NCBI GenBank assembly: GCA_038153405.1
Contig: JAYOYH010000005.1
Location: 32,001 to 96,000 of the forward strand
Origin: Gemmatimonadota bacterium
GTDB lineage: Bacteria > Latescibacterota > UBA2968 > UBA8231
Direction: 5' to 3'
DNA length: 64,000 nucleotides
This document shows, in pieces, positions 10,405 through 19,468 of this stretch. Position numbers and translations under genes: made by a program. Each line of letters begins with the position of its first letter. Positions within the stretch are counted from its first letter, which is position 1. The notes under the pieces were generated by a model. That model had not been told where the DNA came from. It saw only the letters and a list, made by a program, of their open reading frames with translations, and searched no databases.

Positions 10405-11303
10405 GCGATTTCCAATCGATCTGCGTGGTTGGAGCCGGCTTTCTCGGCACGCAAATTGGCCTTCAGTGCGCCGCACACGGATACCAGACGCGGCTCGTCG
10501 AGCCATCTCCCCAAGCGCGCATCCAGTCGCAGCAGGTGGTGGCAACAGAGCTGAAGCGGCGCATTGACAGCGGCCAGCACGATACCGCTGAAGGCGACGC
10601 CGTGCTGGCGCGCATGACCTATTCCGAGGAACTGGAGCAGGGCGTGGCCGGCGCCGGCCTAATCATCGAAGCCATTCCCGAACGCCTCGAACTCAAGCGC
10701 CAGCTCTTTGCCCAACTCGACGCACTAACGCCCCCCGAAACCATCTTGGCCACCAACAGCTCGTCAATTAAGATATCGGCCATCGAAAGCGCTACCCAGC
10801 GCCTCGACAAAGTGCTAAACATGCACTTTTACGGCCTTATTTGGCAGCGCCCTATGGTCGAGTTAATGCGCGGCAGTGCCACCTCCGAAGAGACAATCGA
10901 GGCGGTCTATCGCTGTGCTCAGCGCATCGGCGTAACGCCCCTGGTCGTCGACAGAGAAAGCACCGGCTTTATCTTTAACCGCGTCTGGCGCGCCATCAAA
11001 CGCGAAACCTTGCACCTTGTAAACGAAGGCGTGACCTCGCACGAAAACGTCGACCGCGCCTGGATGATCTTCACGGGCATGAAGATGGGCCCTTTTGCCC
11101 TGATGGATCGCGTGGGGCTGGACGTCATATGCGACATCGAAAACGTCTACTACCGCGAATCGGGACTGGAGCGAGACGCCCCGCCACCCATCCTGACCGA
11201 CCGCGTTGCGCGCGGCGAGTTGGGCTGCAAGACGGGCAAGGGATTTTACACCTATCCCAATCCAGCTTTTGAGGATCCCCAGTGGCTCAGGGGAGACGCG
11301 TAA
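10401..11303 (+). CDS. 3-hydroxyacyl-CoA dehydrogenase family protein
   Basis: VVGAGFLG, IEAIPERLELK, ILATNSS, MHF, GFIFNR, GCKTGKGFY. Confidence 0.92.
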   Translation: MSDFQSICVVGAGFLGTQIGLQCAAHGYQTRLVEPSPQARIQSQQVVATELKRRIDSGQHDTAEGDAVLARMTYSEELEQGVAGAGLIIEAIPERLELKRQLFAQLDALTPPETILATNSSSIKISAIESATQRLDKVLNMHFYGLIWQRPMVELMRGSATSEETIEAVYRCAQRIGVTPLVVDRESTGFIFNRVWRAIKRETLHLVNEGVTSHENVDRAWMIFTGMKMGPFALMDRVGLDVICDIENVYYRESGLERDAPPPILTDRVARGELGCKTGKGFYTYPNPAFEDPQWLRGDA

Positions 11304-11420
11304 ACGGTACAGGCCCTCACCGCCCTATCTATCGCTCCTGAAAAGCCTACGGGGCGATATGGCGTCAGAAGCACTTCGAACAAAGAGCAAAAAATAATTT
11401 AACCGTGGAAAAATATGCCC

Positions 11421-11449
11421 TTGATTTTTTTTCGCATATTACTCACATT
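11421..11449 (+). promoter_or_regulatory. Possible sigma70-type promoter for the riboswitch-fliG transcript
   Basis: TTGATT-17 nt-CACATT in an AT-rich stretch just upstream of the aptamer; weak -10 match. Confidence 0.3.
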
Positions 11450-11459
11450 TCCACTCAGT

Positions 11460-11560
11460 CTTCGTTTCGAAAAGGCAAACTACGCGAAATCGTAGGACGC
11501 GAAGGAACGGGTCCTCATCTGGCCTCTGAGCCACCTAAGGACAGCCGCACTGTCGAAGGC
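11460..11560 (+). ncRNA. Cyclic-dinucleotide riboswitch aptamer, c-di-GMP-I/GEMM-I fold (variant)
   Basis: GGCAAAC, P2 CTACG(C)-GAAA-(T)CGTAG, GACGC-GAAG, P3 CGG-GTCCT/AGGAC-AG-CCG, 3' CTGTCGAA pairing with 5' TTCG; upstream of a motility gene. Confidence 0.85.
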
Positions 11561-11606
11561 CCTAGTTCAGTGCGGTCTATTTAGATCACTCCTTCGCGCG
11601 AGCAGC

Positions 11607-11645
11607 AAAGGCCGCACTGGTATATTTTACTCGTGCGGTTTTTTT
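11607..11645 (+). terminator. Intrinsic terminator in the riboswitch expression platform
   Basis: GGCCGCAC/GTGCGGTT stem with a T7 run (11639-11645), immediately before the fliG start. Confidence 0.8.
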
Positions 11646-11652
11646 GTTGCCG

Positions 11653-12678
11653 ATGGCCTCCGATACAGCAGAAGTTAGCGAAGAACCCGAGATTCCCCTG
11701 CGCCAGCGCGTAGCCATTGTCATGGTTGCACTCGGCTCTGACGTGGCCGGGGAGGTAATGAAACACCTCTCCGATTACGAAGTCGAGGAAATAACCCAGT
11801 CTATAGCGGCTCTCAAGAGCGTTTCCGTCGAGGTGATGGACCGCGTTCTCGAGGATTTTGAACAGCACCTGCTGGCCGGCGAGTGGATCAGCCAAGGCGG
11901 TATCGACTTTGCGCGCAGCGCCCTCGAGCGCGCGATTGGCCCGCGCAAGGCCCAGGAAATAATCGACCGCATCAGCAGCCGCGTGTCCTCTGGGTTCTAC
12001 ATGCTGCGCAACGTCTCGGCCGAACAAATTGCCCCTTTTATAAGCCACGAACACCCGCAGACCATCGCCCTCATTCTGTCGCAGTTGGACTCTGCTCAAG
12101 CTTCGGGCATCCTCTCTCAGCTTCCCGAGCGCCTGCAGGCCGGCGTGGCCTACCGCATAGCCACGATGGAAAACATTACGCCCGCCGTCCTTAAGCAGAT
12201 CGAAGAAAGCTTGGAGACATCGCTGCGCGACGTGCTGGGCGGCAATCAGGACGTCGGCGGTCCCCGCGTCATAGCCGATATACTCAACCTGACTGGTTCC
12301 TCTGTCGAAAAAAACGTCCTCGATCAGATGGACGCCATGGACCCCGAAGTGGCAGAATCGGTGCGCAACTTGATGTTCGTCTTCGCCGACATCGTAAAGT
12401 TGACCGATCGAGAAATCCAGACGCTAATGCGCGAAGTAGATCAAAAGGACCTAGTTGTCGCGCTCAAGACGGCCAGCGAAGAGCTCAAGACCAAGATCCT
12501 CGGCAATATGTCCGAGCGCGTGCGAACCTATATCACCGAGGAGATGGATTTCCTCGGACCCATGCGCGTATCCGAAGTAGAAGAAGTCCAGCTGCGCATC
12601 GTGCAGCAGGTCCGCCAGTTGGAGGAGCAGGGACAAATTACCGTTGTCCGCGGCGACTCCGACGATCAATTCGTTTAA
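11653..12678 (+). CDS. fliG: Flagellar motor switch protein FliG (no other flagellar gene in the window)
   Basis: GGIDFAR, EHPQTIALILS, MFVF (MFxF), NMSER, VEEVQLRIV motifs across full length. Confidence 0.92.
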   Translation: MASDTAEVSEEPEIPLRQRVAIVMVALGSDVAGEVMKHLSDYEVEEITQSIAALKSVSVEVMDRVLEDFEQHLLAGEWISQGGIDFARSALERAIGPRKAQEIIDRISSRVSSGFYMLRNVSAEQIAPFISHEHPQTIALILSQLDSAQASGILSQLPERLQAGVAYRIATMENITPAVLKQIEESLETSLRDVLGGNQDVGGPRVIADILNLTGSSVEKNVLDQMDAMDPEVAESVRNLMFVFADIVKLTDREIQTLMREVDQKDLVVALKTASEELKTKILGNMSERVRTYITEEMDFLGPMRVSEVEEVQLRIVQQVRQLEEQGQITVVRGDSDDQFV

Positions 12679-12773
12679 CCCCAGCAAAGGACGTCCTATG
12701 TATAGTCATGGCGCAAACCAATGCAAATCCACACTTCAACTTTTCTACCTTGCCTACGGAGGTCGTTAGCTAG

Positions 12774-14048
12774 ATGATCGAACCCCGCTCGCCCAAGCTG
12801 CTCTTCGTCCATAGCGGTTCCCCGAAGAAGCGCCTGACCTTTGTCGCCGCCAACCAACTCGGTGCCCAGGTCCACTTATTGAACCCAGAAACCAACTGGG
12901 CCTCTTCTCTCGTCCAACAAACGCACTCCACAGCCGGACTCAGCATTCCCGAAGTCGTCGCGCTCGCCGAAGACGTCCACCGTCGCGAACAGTTCGACGG
13001 CGTCGTGACCTTCTGGGAAGAAGACGTGCCGACCTGTGCGCTGATTAGCGCCCGTCTCGGCCTCCCCGGCAATGCACCGCAGGCCGCTCTGGCCGCGCGC
13101 AGCAAGTACCGCATGCGGAAAGCCTTTCAGTTGGCCGGTTTGCCGGTGCCCAAATTCCGCCGTTTTTTCGATCGCACCTCGCTGCTCGAAGCCTGCGCCG
13201 CCGTCGGCACTCCAGCCGTACTCAAACCGGAATGGGGTTCCGATAGCGAATGGGTGCTGCGCGTCGAAACGCCACAGCAAGCCCTCGAGACCTTTGAATC
13301 CATTCGCAATGAAGTGCGCATTCAAGACTGCATTTACCGCTACCGGAGCGGAACCTACGTGCTCGAAAGTCTGCTGGTCGGACCGGAAGTCAGCGTCGAA
13401 GGCGTCGTGCAAAACGGACGGGTAACCATCTATGCCATCATCGATAAGGCCAAGATGGACGATGACAGCTTTGTCGAGCGCGGCGAAACCACCCCATCGC
13501 TCTTTCCCGAAGACGTGCAGGAGCGGATTCGCACCATGGTCTGCAACGGCGTTGCCGCGCTTGAATTGGACAATTGTGGCATCCACGCGGAGATAAAAAT
13601 CACCGCCGACGGACCGCGCATTATCGAAATTGGTGCGCGCATGGGCGGCGACTGCATTCACGCGCTCGTGCTGCGCGTCTACGGCATTGATCTGGCGGTG
13701 GAAAATATACGCGCCGCACTCGGACAGCCGGTCAGTCCGGCTACGCCCGCACTCGGCTACGGCATCTCGCGCACGCTCGTTCCGGAAAAACCGGGGCTCG
13801 TGCGCCTCGAGCACAGAGGCAAACCGCGCGCCAGTCGCAATCTGATCGAAGTGGTGCTCACCAAGGGGCCCGGCGACTGCGTGGCCGTGCCGCCGCACGG
13901 CTACGACAATCTAGCTTGGATCAGCGTATGGGGGCGCAGTTACCGCGAGGCTAGTCGCCGCATAGACGCGCAAGCTGCTCGTCTGCAAAGCGCGTTTACC
14001 ATTGAGGACCAGAAGCAGACGCTCTACCACACCGAGGCCGCCGGATGA
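12774..14048 (+). CDS. ATP-grasp ligase 1 (L-amino-acid ligase-like)
   Basis: ARSKYRMR, VLKP..GS.S, GPEVSVEG, HAEIK, IEIGARMGGD. Confidence 0.88.
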   Translation: MIEPRSPKLLFVHSGSPKKRLTFVAANQLGAQVHLLNPETNWASSLVQQTHSTAGLSIPEVVALAEDVHRREQFDGVVTFWEEDVPTCALISARLGLPGNAPQAALAARSKYRMRKAFQLAGLPVPKFRRFFDRTSLLEACAAVGTPAVLKPEWGSDSEWVLRVETPQQALETFESIRNEVRIQDCIYRYRSGTYVLESLLVGPEVSVEGVVQNGRVTIYAIIDKAKMDDDSFVERGETTPSLFPEDVQERIRTMVCNGVAALELDNCGIHAEIKITADGPRIIEIGARMGGDCIHALVLRVYGIDLAVENIRAALGQPVSPATPALGYGISRTLVPEKPGLVRLEHRGKPRASRNLIEVVLTKGPGDCVAVPPHGYDNLAWISVWGRSYREASRRIDAQAARLQSAFTIEDQKQTLYHTEAAG

Positions 14049-15364
14049 AGCACCTACTCTTCGTGCACACGGCGGGTGATGCGCAGCCCTATGTAGAGCG
14101 CCTGCGCGCATTGGGCTTTCGCGCCAGTCTCATAAAGCGGTGCCCAAGTGCGGGTGATAGAGCCTGTTTCGATGCGACATTTGACATCGACTACCAAGAA
14201 GATATGGGGGCAGCGCTGGCCTGTGCAGTGGACCTGCACCAGCGCGACCCCATTGACGGCGTGCTCAGCTTTTCGGAAAGCGGCGTGCTCGGAGCCAGCT
14301 TTATCGCCGAACACCTCGGCCTGCCAGCCAATGCTCCGAAAGCCGCGCTGCGCGCGCGCAACAAATACCTCATGCGCAAAGCGCTGCGCGACGCCGGGCT
14401 GCCAACGCCTGAGTTCCATCTGGTCGACAGCGCGCAGCAGGCTCTCTCCATACTGCAAGAGCGCGACCGCCCGATGGTGCTCAAGCCCATCAGCGGCTCA
14501 TCCAGCTACGGCGTCGTACGCCTGATGCCGGAGGACGCGTTGGAAACCATCGCCGCCCACTTTGACTCGGTGCGCACCTATATTGGCACCTACCGCGAGG
14601 AAAATCCCCAGTATCCGTTCGAGTTTTGGCTGCCCGAAGCTGGGCGCGGCATTGACCAGGCCGACGTATTCGACCCGCGAGTGCACCTGCTGCTGGAGGG
14701 TTTTATTCCCGGGCAGCAGGTGAGCGTAGACGGCATTGTCAGCGAGGGGGAAGTGAGCTGCTTTGGCGTTATCGAAATCGAGCGCATCAAAGACGAGGAC
14801 TACTTTCTCGAATACGAAGAATGGATGCCGACGCACCTCGGCACGGCGCGCGAAGAGGCCATCCAAGATGCCACCGCCAGCGCCGTGCGAGCACTGGGTC
14901 TGCGCAACAGTTGTTTTCACTGCGAACTAAAAATCGACGGCGACGACATCTGCGTGCTCGAAATTGCGGCGCGGCGCGGCGCCGACAATATTGCCGATTT
15001 CCTGCACTCGCTGCACGGCATTGATATCTACGCAGAAGGGGCGCACATTGCCAGTGGACAGCATAGGCACTACCCGCGTCGGCATCCGCACGGAGCGATG
15101 AAAATGCGCTACTTTCTACCGGATAAGTCGGGCGTCATTGCCCGCATCGATGGGATCGAGGACGTCCAAAGTGACCCGCGCCTGAGCGAGTTGTGCCTCG
15201 ATTTCTCTGTCGGTGAACGCGTATTAACTCCTCCTGACGGCTTTGAGTTCTTAGGCTATATGAGCGTGTGCGCCACCGACCTTTCCGGTGCAGACGCCGC
15301 GTTAGAGTCGCTGTACCCGCGCGTCGTATTTCATATCGACACCGATTCAATCCTATCATCCTAA
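14045..15364 (+). CDS. ATP-grasp ligase 2 (L-amino-acid ligase-like)
   Basis: ARNKYLMR, VLKPISGSSSYGV, HCELK, LEIAARRGAD; ATGA overlap with upstream gene. Confidence 0.88.
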   Translation: MKHLLFVHTAGDAQPYVERLRALGFRASLIKRCPSAGDRACFDATFDIDYQEDMGAALACAVDLHQRDPIDGVLSFSESGVLGASFIAEHLGLPANAPKAALRARNKYLMRKALRDAGLPTPEFHLVDSAQQALSILQERDRPMVLKPISGSSSYGVVRLMPEDALETIAAHFDSVRTYIGTYREENPQYPFEFWLPEAGRGIDQADVFDPRVHLLLEGFIPGQQVSVDGIVSEGEVSCFGVIEIERIKDEDYFLEYEEWMPTHLGTAREEAIQDATASAVRALGLRNSCFHCELKIDGDDICVLEIAARRGADNIADFLHSLHGIDIYAEGAHIASGQHRHYPRRHPHGAMKMRYFLPDKSGVIARIDGIEDVQSDPRLSELCLDFSVGERVLTPPDGFEFLGYMSVCATDLSGADAALESLYPRVVFHIDTDSILSS

Positions 15365-15365
15365 A

Positions 15366-16628
15366 ATGGCCCATTTAAACGATCCATTGCTGGTGGTACA
15401 CCCAAGTCTGGACTATGCCAGAAGAGTGTGTAGCCACTTTCCCAACACCGTATTCATCGCGTTGCCCGCCCGTGCCAAAGAGCTGCGCATGGCGGGTTTC
15501 CGCGCGCTGGCCGCCGATCTGAACAACGGGCGTGCGGCACTGCGCAGCGCCGCCGACTACGCTCTGGCACAGCGCTTTCGCTACGCGGGTATCGCCTGCT
15601 TTGTCTGCGAATACCTGCCGCTAACCGCATTCGTCGCAGCCGGATTGGGCCTGCCACACGTCGAGGTGCAGACGGCCACACTCCTGCGCGACAAAGCGCG
15701 AAGCGGCGCGCGTTGGGCCCGTGCCGGCATACCCGTGCCCAACGCCCAACTCATCGACGACCTGAGCGAGTTAGAGGCCTTTGCATCGACCTGTCCGCCG
15801 CCTTGGATAGTAAAGCCTATAGACGCGACGGGCAGCGAATGGGTCTTGCGCATAGACGACCCGAGTCAGCTAGCCGAGGCCCACACGCGCCTTCAGCACG
15901 GCCTGCAGGGGTTACACCCTAGCGATCCGGCACCAGCCTATATAGCCCAGCGATTTATTCAGGGCCGCGAATTTGGCGTCGACTTTTTTATCGAAGGACA
16001 GCGCTTGCGCATTTTGCGCCTGTGCGAAAAGTTTCTCGTCGAAACGCCCGCACAGGCAGGCGTCGTTGGCGGCTATTACTTTCCACACCTACCACAGCGC
16101 CTGCGCCGTCAGTTGCAGGATACCCTGCGCCAGGCCGCGCGCGCGGTGGGGATGGCGCGCGGCATCGGCATGGCTGATCTCATCCTCTCTAACGATGTAT
16201 TTTACCTGCTGGAGATGGCGCCCCGTCCGGGCGGGGACTGCCTGCCCGACCTGTGCCGCGCCACCCTCAACTACGACCCCATACGCGCCGCCTGTGAAGC
16301 GGCTATCGGCGAGACTCCGCGCGCCGTTCACTGGCCTCATCCACTGCGCCCGCTGTGTGCGCTCCACCTGATGAGCGATCGCGAGGGGACCATACAGCAG
16401 ATCGACTTTTCTGCCCTGCGCGCCCACAGCAGCTTCTACAAATTCATCGAGGCCTACTGCGAACCAGGCGACGCCCTGCGCCAATGGGCTGGCAGCTACG
16501 AAGACCGCATTGTCGCTTCCTGCCTAGCCGATTGCCCCGATCCGAGCAGCCTGGCATCGCTGTGGAAAGAGCTGTCAGATGCCGTCCATATCACTTTTGC
16601 TAACAAACTGGAAACGGACCCATTATGA
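15366..16628 (+). CDS. ATP-grasp ligase 3
   Basis: RDK, IVKPIDATGSEWV, GREFGVD, LEMAPRPGGD. Confidence 0.85.
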   Translation: MAHLNDPLLVVHPSLDYARRVCSHFPNTVFIALPARAKELRMAGFRALAADLNNGRAALRSAADYALAQRFRYAGIACFVCEYLPLTAFVAAGLGLPHVEVQTATLLRDKARSGARWARAGIPVPNAQLIDDLSELEAFASTCPPPWIVKPIDATGSEWVLRIDDPSQLAEAHTRLQHGLQGLHPSDPAPAYIAQRFIQGREFGVDFFIEGQRLRILRLCEKFLVETPAQAGVVGGYYFPHLPQRLRRQLQDTLRQAARAVGMARGIGMADLILSNDVFYLLEMAPRPGGDCLPDLCRATLNYDPIRAACEAAIGETPRAVHWPHPLRPLCALHLMSDREGTIQQIDFSALRAHSSFYKFIEAYCEPGDALRQWAGSYEDRIVASCLADCPDPSSLASLWKELSDAVHITFANKLETDPL

Positions 16629-17989
16629 CTTCTTCTTCGCCCCCTCTCCGCGCCGGCCAGCTGCGCGCACTGGTCGACGAATGCCTCGAGCAGCGCGCGC
16701 AGTTTCTCGCCGCTAGCGAGGCATTCGGCACGCCGCAGTACTTAGTCGACCAGATGCGCATCGACGCGCAGGCCGCGCGCTTTCTACGCGCGTTTAGCCA
16801 CCCGCAGCAGCCCACGCGCACGCACTATGCGCTCAAATCCAACCCGTCTCTACCTGTCGTTCAGACGATTTGTCGAGCCGGACTGTGCGCCGACGCATCA
16901 TCCGGTCTCGAACTCGAGCTAGCGCTGCGCTGTGATTTCCCCCACATCGTTCTATCAGGTCCGGCCAAGAGCGACGGTGAACTCGGGCTAGCGCTCGACC
17001 ACGCGGATAGAGTCACGGTGCACTTGGACAGCTTTGCCGAGTTGAAGCGACTAGAGGCACTGGCCGCTCGGCGCCAAACCCCTATTCGCACCGGCATCCG
17101 AATCAATACGGAAGCGCACGGCAACTGGACAAAGTTCGGCATTCCCGCCGCCTCCCTAGGCGAGTTCACGGCGGCCGCCCGACAAATGGACTGGGTGCAG
17201 CTGCAGGGCATACAGTTTCATCTCAGCTGGAATCGCCAGGCCCGCGGCTACATCGAAACGCTGCGCGCGCTGGGTCCGCTGCTAGTTGCCCATCCGCCGA
17301 CAGACGGGTGGAAATTTGTCGATATAGGCGGCGGATTTTATCCCGAAGATGACGAGGCGGCCTATCCATGGCTAACCGATGACCAGCGCCTGCGCGCGCT
17401 CAGCGGTCAAGCAAACGCCGATGCACCGGCTGCCGATTGGGACTTGAGCTACTTGCTACACGCCGTGCAACCGATAGAGGACATGGCCAGCGAAGTATTT
17501 GCCGCCTTTGCCCAATTCGTCAGCTCGTCCATCGGTCCACTCGAGCTATGGCTGGAACCCGGTCGCTATATAGCGAACAAGGGCGTGCATATCCTGCTGC
17601 GGGTAGCCGATGTTAAAAGCGACGATATCGCCATCGCCGATGGGGGCACCAATTTGCTGGGCTGGGAGCGCTTGGAAAGCGAGCACTGCCCGCTGATTAA
17701 CCTTACCCACCCATCGACCCAGCAGCGGCGCTGCCGAGTCTACGGTTCGCTCTGCACGCCACACGATTTGTGGGGATATGCCTATTACGGGACGCACCTG
17801 GAGGTAGGCGATATCCTGCTATTACCGGCCCAGGGTTCCTATGTGCAAACGCTGGCACAGCGCTTTATAAAACCTGTCTGCCAAACCGTCTACTGGAGCA
17901 CTGATGGTCAATTGGAGCAGGTCGAAGCGGCCGAGAGATTAGAGGATCGCTATCCGGCTCTGCGCGACAGCGCACTGCACCCGGCCTAG
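16625..17989 (+). CDS. PLP-dependent fold-type III decarboxylase (LysA/ODC-like)
   Basis: YALKSN (PLP Lys), KFG, DIGGGF, EPGRY, GSLCTPHD, GSY. Confidence 0.9.
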   Translation: MTSSSPPLRAGQLRALVDECLEQRAQFLAASEAFGTPQYLVDQMRIDAQAARFLRAFSHPQQPTRTHYALKSNPSLPVVQTICRAGLCADASSGLELELALRCDFPHIVLSGPAKSDGELGLALDHADRVTVHLDSFAELKRLEALAARRQTPIRTGIRINTEAHGNWTKFGIPAASLGEFTAAARQMDWVQLQGIQFHLSWNRQARGYIETLRALGPLLVAHPPTDGWKFVDIGGGFYPEDDEAAYPWLTDDQRLRALSGQANADAPAADWDLSYLLHAVQPIEDMASEVFAAFAQFVSSSIGPLELWLEPGRYIANKGVHILLRVADVKSDDIAIADGGTNLLGWERLESEHCPLINLTHPSTQQRRCRVYGSLCTPHDLWGYAYYGTHLEVGDILLLPAQGSYVQTLAQRFIKPVCQTVYWSTDGQLEQVEAAERLEDRYPALRDSALHPA

Positions 17990-18007: not shown

Positions 18008-19468
18008 GTGCAGATCGAACCACTGGACCAATTTATCGTAGCGCTCTACGCGCTGGCCATGCTCGGGGTCGGCTTTTATCTGCGCGGTAGGATATCGACC
18101 TTTGACCAGTTTAGCATGGCCGACCGCCAGCTGTCGGCACCGCTGCTCTTGTGCACGCTGGTATCTACCTACTATGGCCTCGGCGTCCTGCTGGCTGGCT
18201 CGGAAATCAGCTATGAAAGCGGCGTGGTCAACTTCTTTTTCGATACGGGACCGGCCTATATCGCCCTGATCGTAGCGGCGCTACTTTTGGCCCCGCGCCT
18301 GCAGGGCCGCTCCTTTCGCTCCATACCGGATATCGTGGGAGCGCGCTTTGGCCTCGGCGCCCAAATATGCGCCGCGCTCTCCTGCTTTATTTATGCGCTG
18401 CCCGCCTTTTCCATCATGGGCTTGGGCGGTCTGCTGCACCTGCTCTTCGGCTTGCCTTTTTACTGGGGTTTAGTGCTGGGCAGCGCCTTTGCTCTCACTT
18501 ATACGGCACTGGGCGGCCTGCTAGCCGTCGCGCTGACCGATGCTGCCCAGTTCGCCCTCATGGCGACGACGCTGGCCCTAGTCGCCTTTCTCGGGCTACC
18601 CGACCTAGGCGGAGTGGCAGCGCTCGAACAGGCGCTGCCAACGCACTTTGAACCATCTGGCGGACGTCCCATCGCCCTGCTCTTCGTCTACGGTCTCACC
18701 TCGCTGAGCATTCTCGTCGAGCCGGCCTTTTACCAGCGCATCTTCGCCGCGCGCGACCAGCGCACAATCGTCATGGCCATGCTCGTCGGCGTGGTATTTT
18801 GGATGTCGTACGACTGGATCGTCACCGTGCTGGGCATCGCCGCACGCGCGGCCGTGCTGGGTGGCTATATGCCCGAACCGCCGACGCCCGATCAGGCTGT
18901 TATACACTTTGCCATACGCGTATTGCCCAGCGGCCTCATAGGCATATTTGCCGCCGGCGTCGTCGCTGCCGCCATGTCGACCGTCGACAGCTATCTCCTC
19001 GTTTCTGCCAGCACGTTGGTCTACGACATCTGGCATCCGCTCGGCGGCAGGCACATGGACGATGCGCAACTCGTGCGGCGCACCCGCTGGACGATGTTAT
19101 TGACCACCGCTGCAACGATCCTGCTCTGCCTCTACTTCAGCAATGTCGAACGCCTGTGGATCTTTATCACCGCCGTGCTGATATGCACCAGTATGATTCC
19201 CGTGCTGAGCGCCCTGTTCTGGCCGAGCGTGCAGCGCCGCGCTGGATGCCTGGCAACCTATGTCGGCTTTTCTTCGGTGCTTGCATTCTACACCTGGATC
19301 GATCTATGCGGCCAATGGGTCGAAGAAGAAGCGACCTACATTTGGACGGGCGCAATTTTCGACCATTCGTGGACAATTAACCAAGACTACGGCATACTCT
19401 ATATCCTGCCGCTGGTCATTGTCGTCTTTGCCGTCTCCCACCTATTTCCCGAGCGCAGCGCATCGTGA
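18008..19468 (+). CDS. Sodium:solute symporter (SSS) family transporter
   Basis: Many TM segments, YTALGGLLAVALTD, YQRIFAA, AAAMSTVDS. Confidence 0.92.
   Translation: MQIEPLDQFIVALYALAMLGVGFYLRGRISTFDQFSMADRQLSAPLLLCTLVSTYYGLGVLLAGSEISYESGVVNFFFDTGPAYIALIVAALLLAPRLQGRSFRSIPDIVGARFGLGAQICAALSCFIYALPAFSIMGLGGLLHLLFGLPFYWGLVLGSAFALTYTALGGLLAVALTDAAQFALMATTLALVAFLGLPDLGGVAALEQALPTHFEPSGGRPIALLFVYGLTSLSILVEPAFYQRIFAARDQRTIVMAMLVGVVFWMSYDWIVTVLGIAARAAVLGGYMPEPPTPDQAVIHFAIRVLPSGLIGIFAAGVVAAAMSTVDSYLLVSASTLVYDIWHPLGGRHMDDAQLVRRTRWTMLLTTAATILLCLYFSNVERLWIFITAVLICTSMIPVLSALFWPSVQRRAGCLATYVGFSSVLAFYTWIDLCGQWVEEEATYIWTGAIFDHSWTINQDYGILYILPLVIVVFAVSHLFPERSAS

Follow-up and report, generated by a model that had tools for sequence, protein, structure and literature searches.

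Does a c-di-GMP-I-type riboswitch whose ligand-contacting bases have changed still answer to c-di-GMP, or might it sense another signal? The question arises at a locus in a 64,000-nucleotide stretch of DNA (the window), which an earlier note, made from the sequence alone, had described as a GEMM-I aptamer with the triplet G20/G47/U92 (GGU) instead of G20/A47/C92. Riboswitch names and general background follow PMC12452182, PMC8835794 and PMC5473149. An Rfam scan of the whole window returned a match to c-di-GMP-I (RF01051) at 11464-11557, with a score of 45.7 bits (E 9.7e-06; cut-off 35 bits), and no other Rfam match. In a local scan of the aptamer, the GGC variant model (RF03167) scored 53.7 bits, below its cut-off of 59 bits. 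The RF01051 and RF03167 alignments concurred on all three pocket bases, as the note had claimed, and neither placed A47/C92 at the locus. The GEMM-I landmarks were also borne out, with a P2 capped by a GNRA (GAAA) loop, a P3 with a bulged AG, C44 and G83 all present. Our own model, R1, was built on the seven copies described below and gave 132 bits for 11458-11560 by construction. The coordinates of the aptamer, its leader and the genes that follow are collected in Table 1.

Table 1. Features of the aptamer locus and the downstream operon, in window coordinates.
Feature	Position	Strand	Evidence or remarks
Weak sigma-70-like promoter candidate	11421-11449	+	-35 TTGATT, 17 nt, -10 CACATT; by eye
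GEMM-I-fold aptamer, G20/G47/U92 variant, 5'-shifted P1 included	11458-11560	+	RF01051, RF03167, R1
Shifted P1, 5' strand	11458-11464	+	Pairs with 11554-11560; 7 bp here, 6-10 bp in 7/7 copies
Long J1/2	11465-11473	+	9 nt here, 9-10 nt in 7/7 copies; holds the short canonical P1 register (G11469 with C11554)
G20, canonical alpha-guanine reader	11474	+	Both Rfam alignments
P2 with GAAA loop and C44 (11498)	11475-11500	+	One private C.U mismatch at 11490
G47, replaces stacking A47	11501	+	Both Rfam alignments; 7/7 copies
P3	11503-11551	+	Invariant GA/CA internal loop, bulged AG (G83 = 11544), loop-receptor region
U92, replaces ligand-pairing C92	11553	+	Both Rfam alignments; X7 contig; 7/7 copies
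Hairpin 1	11544-11582	+	11544-11552 with 11568-11576; excludes P3; short U tail; predicted -20.3 kcal/mol
Predicted antiterminator	11567-11620	+	Freed 3' arm of hairpin 1 with 5' arm of terminator 2; -20.7 kcal/mol, computed at the transcript length where the repeat emerges
Terminator 2	11610-11645	+	Stem with internal loop, U7 tail; -18.8 kcal/mol, z -5.09, 0/200 shuffles
Orphan fliG paralogue	11653-12678	+	TIGR00207, 343 bits; no evident ribosome-binding site
Conserved 23-codon ORF ending YGGR	12698-12769	+	15/15 loci with upstream sequence
Three ATP-grasp ligases, L-amino-acid-ligase type	12774-14048, 14045-15364, 15366-16628	+	Pfam ATP-grasp in 3/3
Group IV PLP-dependent decarboxylase	16625-17989	+	PF02784; distant to LysA, FslC, BtrK
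Sodium:solute symporter	18008-19468	+	PF00474

A contig from a separate seawater study (X7, depth 3.3) spans 11286-11571. Its one difference from the window is at 11446, and assembly error can thus be dismissed as the source of G47 and U92. Contigs X3 and X4 also agreed; with the same length and the same depth as each other, these two may represent the source data. Contig X8 does not reach the aptamer. Sequencing runs holding the stretch were labelled as estuary, seawater, marine or ballast water.

Seven GGU copies were identified in six genomes, spanning three genera and two families and representing about three deep lineages and one paralogue. In the window's own genome (G000), contig C21 carries a second RF01051 match; its triplet is again G/G/U, and its P2 and P3 loop differ from those in the window. 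The five further copies lie in G019 and G020 (the same genus, g1), G001 (another genus), and G103 and G104 (another family). Model searches gave matches in 12 of 76 genomes at the family level and 21 of 132 at the class level; as only 26-49 candidates were scored per genome, copies may have been missed. When 34 matches from 43 sources were aligned to the model built on the seven, 18 read G/A/C, 7 G/G/U, 2 A/A/C and 1 A/A/U, and 6 others were decayed, truncated or poorly aligned. A match in G014, outside this table, was canonical by eye. An exact G47 pattern gave 73 matches in 168 genomes of the phylum. Seven of these had a P2 stem and GAAA loop by eye; they were the same seven aptamers, and all carried U92. 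These seven copies share G47 and U92, and relatives thus do not all carry A47/C92.

Wider pattern searches were less productive. A scan of all genomes gave 33 loci, and the three with an RF01051 match, in records labelled Gemmatimonadota or Candidatus Latescibacterota, were the aptamers already known from G019, G020 and G001. The other 30 were chance-like, without an RF01051 match, and were rejected. Because C93 was fixed in this pattern, any members with U93 from other phyla would have escaped it. Another pattern search gave 17 matches, 5 of them real, and missed the two U93 copies. The single locus from a metagenome scan was rejected for want of a P2 stem, none of 37 viral loci was aptamer-shaped by eye, and a candidate at G020:C38 was rejected as lying inside a kinase gene. 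Short contigs of related aptamers with other flanks (X7 record 6, X14 and X20) aligned to window positions 11469-11552, indicating that more members exist in marine and estuary metagenomes. X20, an RNA-library contig of a relative, matched 11483-11552 and then carried C at 92 and a far-P1-type strand, and position 47 was absent among the differences listed for it. Outside the seven, G47 and U92 may thus not be strictly coupled.

The seven copies share more than the triplet. P1 had been placed at TTCG/CGAA in the earlier note; this helix can form, but the P1 kept in all copies is a longer one, lying further out (11458-11464 with 11554-11560). This far P1 (6-10 bp) together with a J1/2 of 9-10 nt was formable in all seven GGU copies and in none of the 18 G/A/C copies (best 0-6 bp). 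Three of its pairs had changed on both sides, yet the helix alone showed no excess over shuffles (33-108/500). The short canonical register survives with 3-5 bp and no double change, so both registers may be used. By folding, the closing pair of the far P1 had a probability of 0.03 here, against 0.33-0.96 for the other six copies, and the energy minimum of the aptamer alone did not return the GEMM shape. J1/2 exceeds that of canonical copies by about 5 nt and has an invariant GAAAA at its end. In the upper part of P2, three of six pairs had changed on both sides. Mismatches reported for P2 and P3 were both present, but only that in P2, at U11490, is private to this copy. Those at the base of P3 (11505-6 against 11548-9) form a GA/CA loop that is invariant and unpaired in all seven copies.

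A decayed c-di-GMP-I riboswitch, the second option raised in the earlier note, or a sequence error would be another account of the altered pocket. The private mismatch at 11490 fits decay, as do decayed relatives that precede the ligase operon described below in two genomes: G062, where the remnant scores 44.2 bits and has C47/C92 but still the far P1, and G063 (18 bits). Between genera or families, however, a 74-position core of the aptamer was 86-95% identical, far above neutral, while the adjacent ligase gene was 34-45% identical at four-fold sites and 56-66% in protein. The whole structure was 88% paired, with 6 pairs changed on both sides, and its score was reached by 0 of 500 shuffles, a figure inflated by relatedness. 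A second copy with a different P2 in the same genome, five more in five other genomes, compensatory changes and a matching expression platform likewise contradict decay, and the independent X7 contig argues against error. We regard both as very improbable. Judged by these divergences, the variant is evidently under purifying selection across two families, and it is highly likely that the GGU class is a real, maintained regulatory RNA.

Modelling indicated a leader with relay terminators, likely arranged as a transcriptional ON switch. Transcription from the promoter candidate would begin at ~11456-11458, the 5' edge of P1, and in G103 and G104 TTGACA-17 nt-TAAACT/TAGTAT lies at the equivalent place, with a start at the far helix (by eye). 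A promoter scan and a simple terminator scan called neither this candidate nor terminator 2. The 5' arm of terminator 2 repeats the aptamer 3' strand; across the copies, terminator arms pair with or repeat this strand, with U92 included in the second copy of G000 (C21), G103 and G104. Without ligand, 11544-11552 is predicted to pair with 11568-11576, destroying the aptamer and letting terminator 2 form; the predicted preference for the aptamer-destroying hairpin is 7-17 kcal/mol. With ligand, P3 and P1 would hold the 11544-11552 strand, and 11567-11577, now free, would trap the 5' arm of terminator 2 while the 3' arm was still to be transcribed, giving read-through. At equilibrium, terminator 2 is favoured over the antiterminator here (-28.3 vs -21.0 kcal/mol), and across the five copies that possess a second terminator, its completed form is the more stable by 1-7 kcal/mol. 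Read-through would therefore need kinetics. The C21 copy has a single terminator, and G001 a competing hairpin without a nearby U tail.

Three terminator-like hairpins in series were observed 40-140 nt 3' of the aptamer in G104 (L083) and G103 (L084). Each 5' arm repeats the aptamer 3' strand, a possible domino antitermination design. The GEMM-I aptamer Bc1 of Bacillus thuringiensis is also followed by two terminators, the second of which is described as masking the response (PMC11218506). GGU leaders differ in that each later terminator 5' arm repeats the aptamer 3' strand, such that one freed strand can disable the next.

These features could also belong to a ligand-free or protein-dependent attenuator, in which the retained aptamer fold would set read-through at a constant level or at one under protein control. 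The long P1 would stabilise the aptamer without ligand, the aptamer is lost or decayed at 9 of 15 operon loci with upstream sequence, the Vc1 mutants A39T and C104G are reported to lose binding and keep expression (PMC4744006), and the Bc1 response is reported to need a protein (PMC11218506). Yet the pocket and junction bases that do not pair stay unchanged between families even though synonymous sites are saturated, and the preference of the ligand-free leader for the aptamer-destroying hairpin is as expected of a ligand-driven switch. An attenuator of this kind seems to us improbable.

Six of the seven copies lead one operon, comprising a short peptide ORF, three ATP-grasp ligases and a PLP decarboxylase. 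Only in genus g1 does the fliG gene separate the switch from the operon. In G103 and G104 the operon follows the switch directly, and in G001 the link was made through the overlap of two contig ends, with only the first ligase on the stretch seen. The symporter is part of the operon in G000, G019 and G104, and a different gene follows in G103. The short ORF (in the window and at 14 orthologous loci, L115-L122 and L124-L129) encodes 22-25 aa ending in (Y/F)GG(L/R/H), has its own ribosome-binding site, and lies just 5' of the first ATP-grasp gene. Its GG codons double as the Shine-Dalgarno of the next gene, which suggests a possible coupling leader, or a precursor or carrier peptide for the ligases. 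Pfam assigned an LAL_C2 domain to the first two ligases, and the closest solved structures to the first were L-amino acid ligases and BacD. Contigs from two RNA runs included fliG and the first ligase, where DNA origin is possible, and none spanned this aptamer exactly.

The first ligase was found in 16 of the 168 genomes. Six carried an intact aptamer, two the remnants in G062 and G063, seven none that was detected, and one lacked upstream sequence, leaving 10 of 16 operon genomes without an intact aptamer. Two operon leaders without an aptamer (L119 and L122, in G058 and G059) share an element, GACGCG...CGCGTC, with an inner GGAGG/CCTCC stem. The seventh copy, on C21, leads a SAM methyltransferase gene. 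No aptamer was found upstream of the orthologues of this gene in 3 other genomes of the 168, all with the operon, so the second copy looks like a recruitment. Neither was an aptamer found upstream of other fliG paralogues. Canonical copies in the lineage precede genes for varied surface, secreted and regulatory or signalling proteins (by eye). G000 holds four full-length fliG paralogues (on C5, C69, C29 and C43; L068-L071), with 100, 84, 69 and 42% identity to the window fliG. None had flanking fliF or fliH by eye, and five partial FliG-like matches occur besides.

What could the altered pocket bind? In Vc2, A47G costs about five orders of magnitude (~10^5-fold) in affinity. Together, G47 and U92 should therefore leave little c-di-GMP affinity unless other changes compensate. 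C92 is described as Watson-Crick pairing the beta guanine and G20 as reading the alpha guanine (PMC5888326), with A47 stacked between the two guanines (PMC3764141). U92 thus predicts adenine at the beta site. Vc2 G20A/C92U is reported to bind c-di-AMP (PMC7288161; PMC9049102), and A39U in Vc1, the equivalent of a change at A47, to abolish c-di-GMP binding in vitro (PMC4744006). The reading we put first, with a probability of about 0.35, is that this conserved ON-switch variant of the ligase operon takes an adenine-bearing dinucleotide, rather than c-di-GMP, as its signal. In this model the beta-site adenine would pair with U92, and G47, the extended J1/2 and the invariant loop in P3 would reshape the remainder of the pocket. 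The only adenine-bearing signal with a synthase found in these genomes was c-di-AMP, with DAC domains in all six GGU genomes. Against this reading, G20 is a guanine reader and a poor fit for c-di-AMP, and G47 should hurt any dinucleotide unless compensated. A G-A hybrid (3'3'-cGAMP flipped, or pGpA) would fit G20 better than c-di-AMP, but no synthase for one was found.

The search for such synthases covered six genomes, 84-98% complete, and no cGAMP synthase (Hypr GGDEF or CD-NTase) was found in them. The signature of Hypr enzymes is described as a Ser nine residues after a conserved Asn (PMC6456294). It was seen in none of 23 GGDEF matches from the six genomes (4 from G000 and 19 of 24 from the others; five weak partials were dropped), and the catalytically intact domains among the 23 translated all had Asp at this position. 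No SMODS cyclase was found in the five GGU genomes tested (all but G019). In relatives with A20 (cGAMP-type) aptamers (L008, L013 and L017, in G061, G016 and G058), no Hypr GGDEF was seen in the 7 of 16 matches that were read. Since the enzyme was likewise not seen among these matches from A20-bearing relatives, the synthase test is weak both ways.

Weak sensing of c-di-GMP itself is possible, if on the unlikely side. U92 would wobble with the beta guanine, G47 would stack, and the long P1 would pre-organise the fold, the operon opening only at high c-di-GMP. G20 is kept in all seven copies. An intact GGEEF cyclase with the canonical Asp is encoded in all six GGU genomes, and the hosts presumably make c-di-GMP. 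Flagellin domains number 8-9 in each of five tested genomes (nine flagellin-N matches in G000), and fliG follows the switch in genus g1. In vivo, Vc2 with C92U is reported to respond still, in part, to c-di-GMP (10.1101/617340), and structures of C92U are available (PMC10671752). Two pocket bases have changed at once, however, and A47 is described as universally conserved in class I (PMC9049102). Many mutations could weaken binding, but G47, U92 and the P3 loop do not vary between families, and the target operon is metabolic.

The aptamer might instead fill the beta site by itself, with G47 or a J1/2 adenine pairing U92, so that G20 would read a single guanine nucleotide (GTP, ppGpp or pGpG) or another operon-linked metabolite. 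G47 and U92 can pair where A47 and C92 cannot, J1/2 is extended and ends in the invariant adenines, the P3 base is rebuilt, and the gene context is unlike that of canonical copies. The complementarity of 47 and 92 throughout the variants was discarded as evidence: with a purine at 47 and a pyrimidine at 92, complementarity in non-canonical pairs is automatic and cannot discriminate between readings. The folding probability of the G47-U92 pair was 0.00 in every one of the seven copies, although secondary-structure models cover junction pairs poorly. We consider a pocket half filled in this way unlikely. In decreasing order of probability, we thus rank an adenine-bearing dinucleotide, weak c-di-GMP sensing, a half-filled pocket, a ligand-free attenuator and decay.

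Comparison with known families placed the class among its relatives. The UAU variant of c-di-GMP-I, whose name we take to stand for U20, A47 and U92, shares only U92 with GGU, which has G20 and G47. The engineered Vc2 mutants C92U and G20A/C92U (PDB 3MUR, 3MUT, 3MUV, 3UD3, 3UD4) also share U92, but keep A47 and are not natural; 3UD3 and 3UD4 presumably hold pGpA/GpA. With c-di-GMP-I itself (RF01051, Vibrio cholerae Vc2), GGU aptamers have in common the P2/P3 fold, GAAA loop, C44, bulged G83 and G20, and, with canonical copies of the same lineage, a terminator overlapping the P3 3' strand. They differ in G47, U92, the far P1, the long J1/2, the invariant P3 internal loop, the relay terminators and the metabolic operon. 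RF03167 shares G20 and G47 and was the best Rfam model for all four copies so scanned (52.6-54.9 bits). GGU differs from it in having U92, not C92, and a shifted P1, and all seven copies, at 52.6-58.7 bits, lay below its cut-off of 59. The GGU class is a member of the GEMM-I clan that departs from c-di-GMP-I at two of three pocket positions and lies outside the GGC and UAU definitions. No match to the ydaO c-di-AMP riboswitch (RF00379) was found in the window, and one of five GGU genomes had a match elsewhere. A natural A20/A47/U92 aptamer was seen in G062 (L009, G062:C81:19635-19735). Its triplet is that of the engineered c-di-AMP-binding G20A/C92U mutant, the base of its P3 is the same as in the GGU class, and it precedes a gene for a >2600-aa protein without a Pfam match.

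The 3'3'-cGAMP riboswitch (GEMM-Ib) uses the same scaffold, but is changed at position 20, whereas GGU is changed at 47 and 92, with G20 in all seven copies. In GGU, a G-A ligand would have to bind the other way round, and no Hypr cyclase was found. GEMM-Ib is a precedent nonetheless, as a rare variant with an altered pocket, a changed ligand and a changed gene set, of the kind from which ligands have been revealed before (PMC7266159). In literature searches with limited coverage of subscription journals, we found no paper describing a G/G/U variant, although the supplement of Weinberg 2017 may already list the triplet. The variant is without an Rfam model of its own and points to one uncharacterised operon. 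The broadest proposal is a new riboswitch class in the GEMM-I scaffold, with a pocket, formed by G47, U92, the long J1/2 and the rebuilt P3 base, for a nucleotide signal or metabolite new to the fold, gating an undescribed short-peptide/ATP-grasp pathway through a two- or three-terminator relay. We hold it tentatively and think it rather unlikely. A new ligand would mean a new signalling link and a biosensor part. If c-di-GMP is the ligand, A47 and C92 would both be replaceable, which would also bear on the unexplained GGC variant. Degenerate GGDEF proteins without the catalytic motif are conserved in the lineage (G000 C1:213800 and C20:74231; orthologues L138-L149), and are possible nucleotide receptors.
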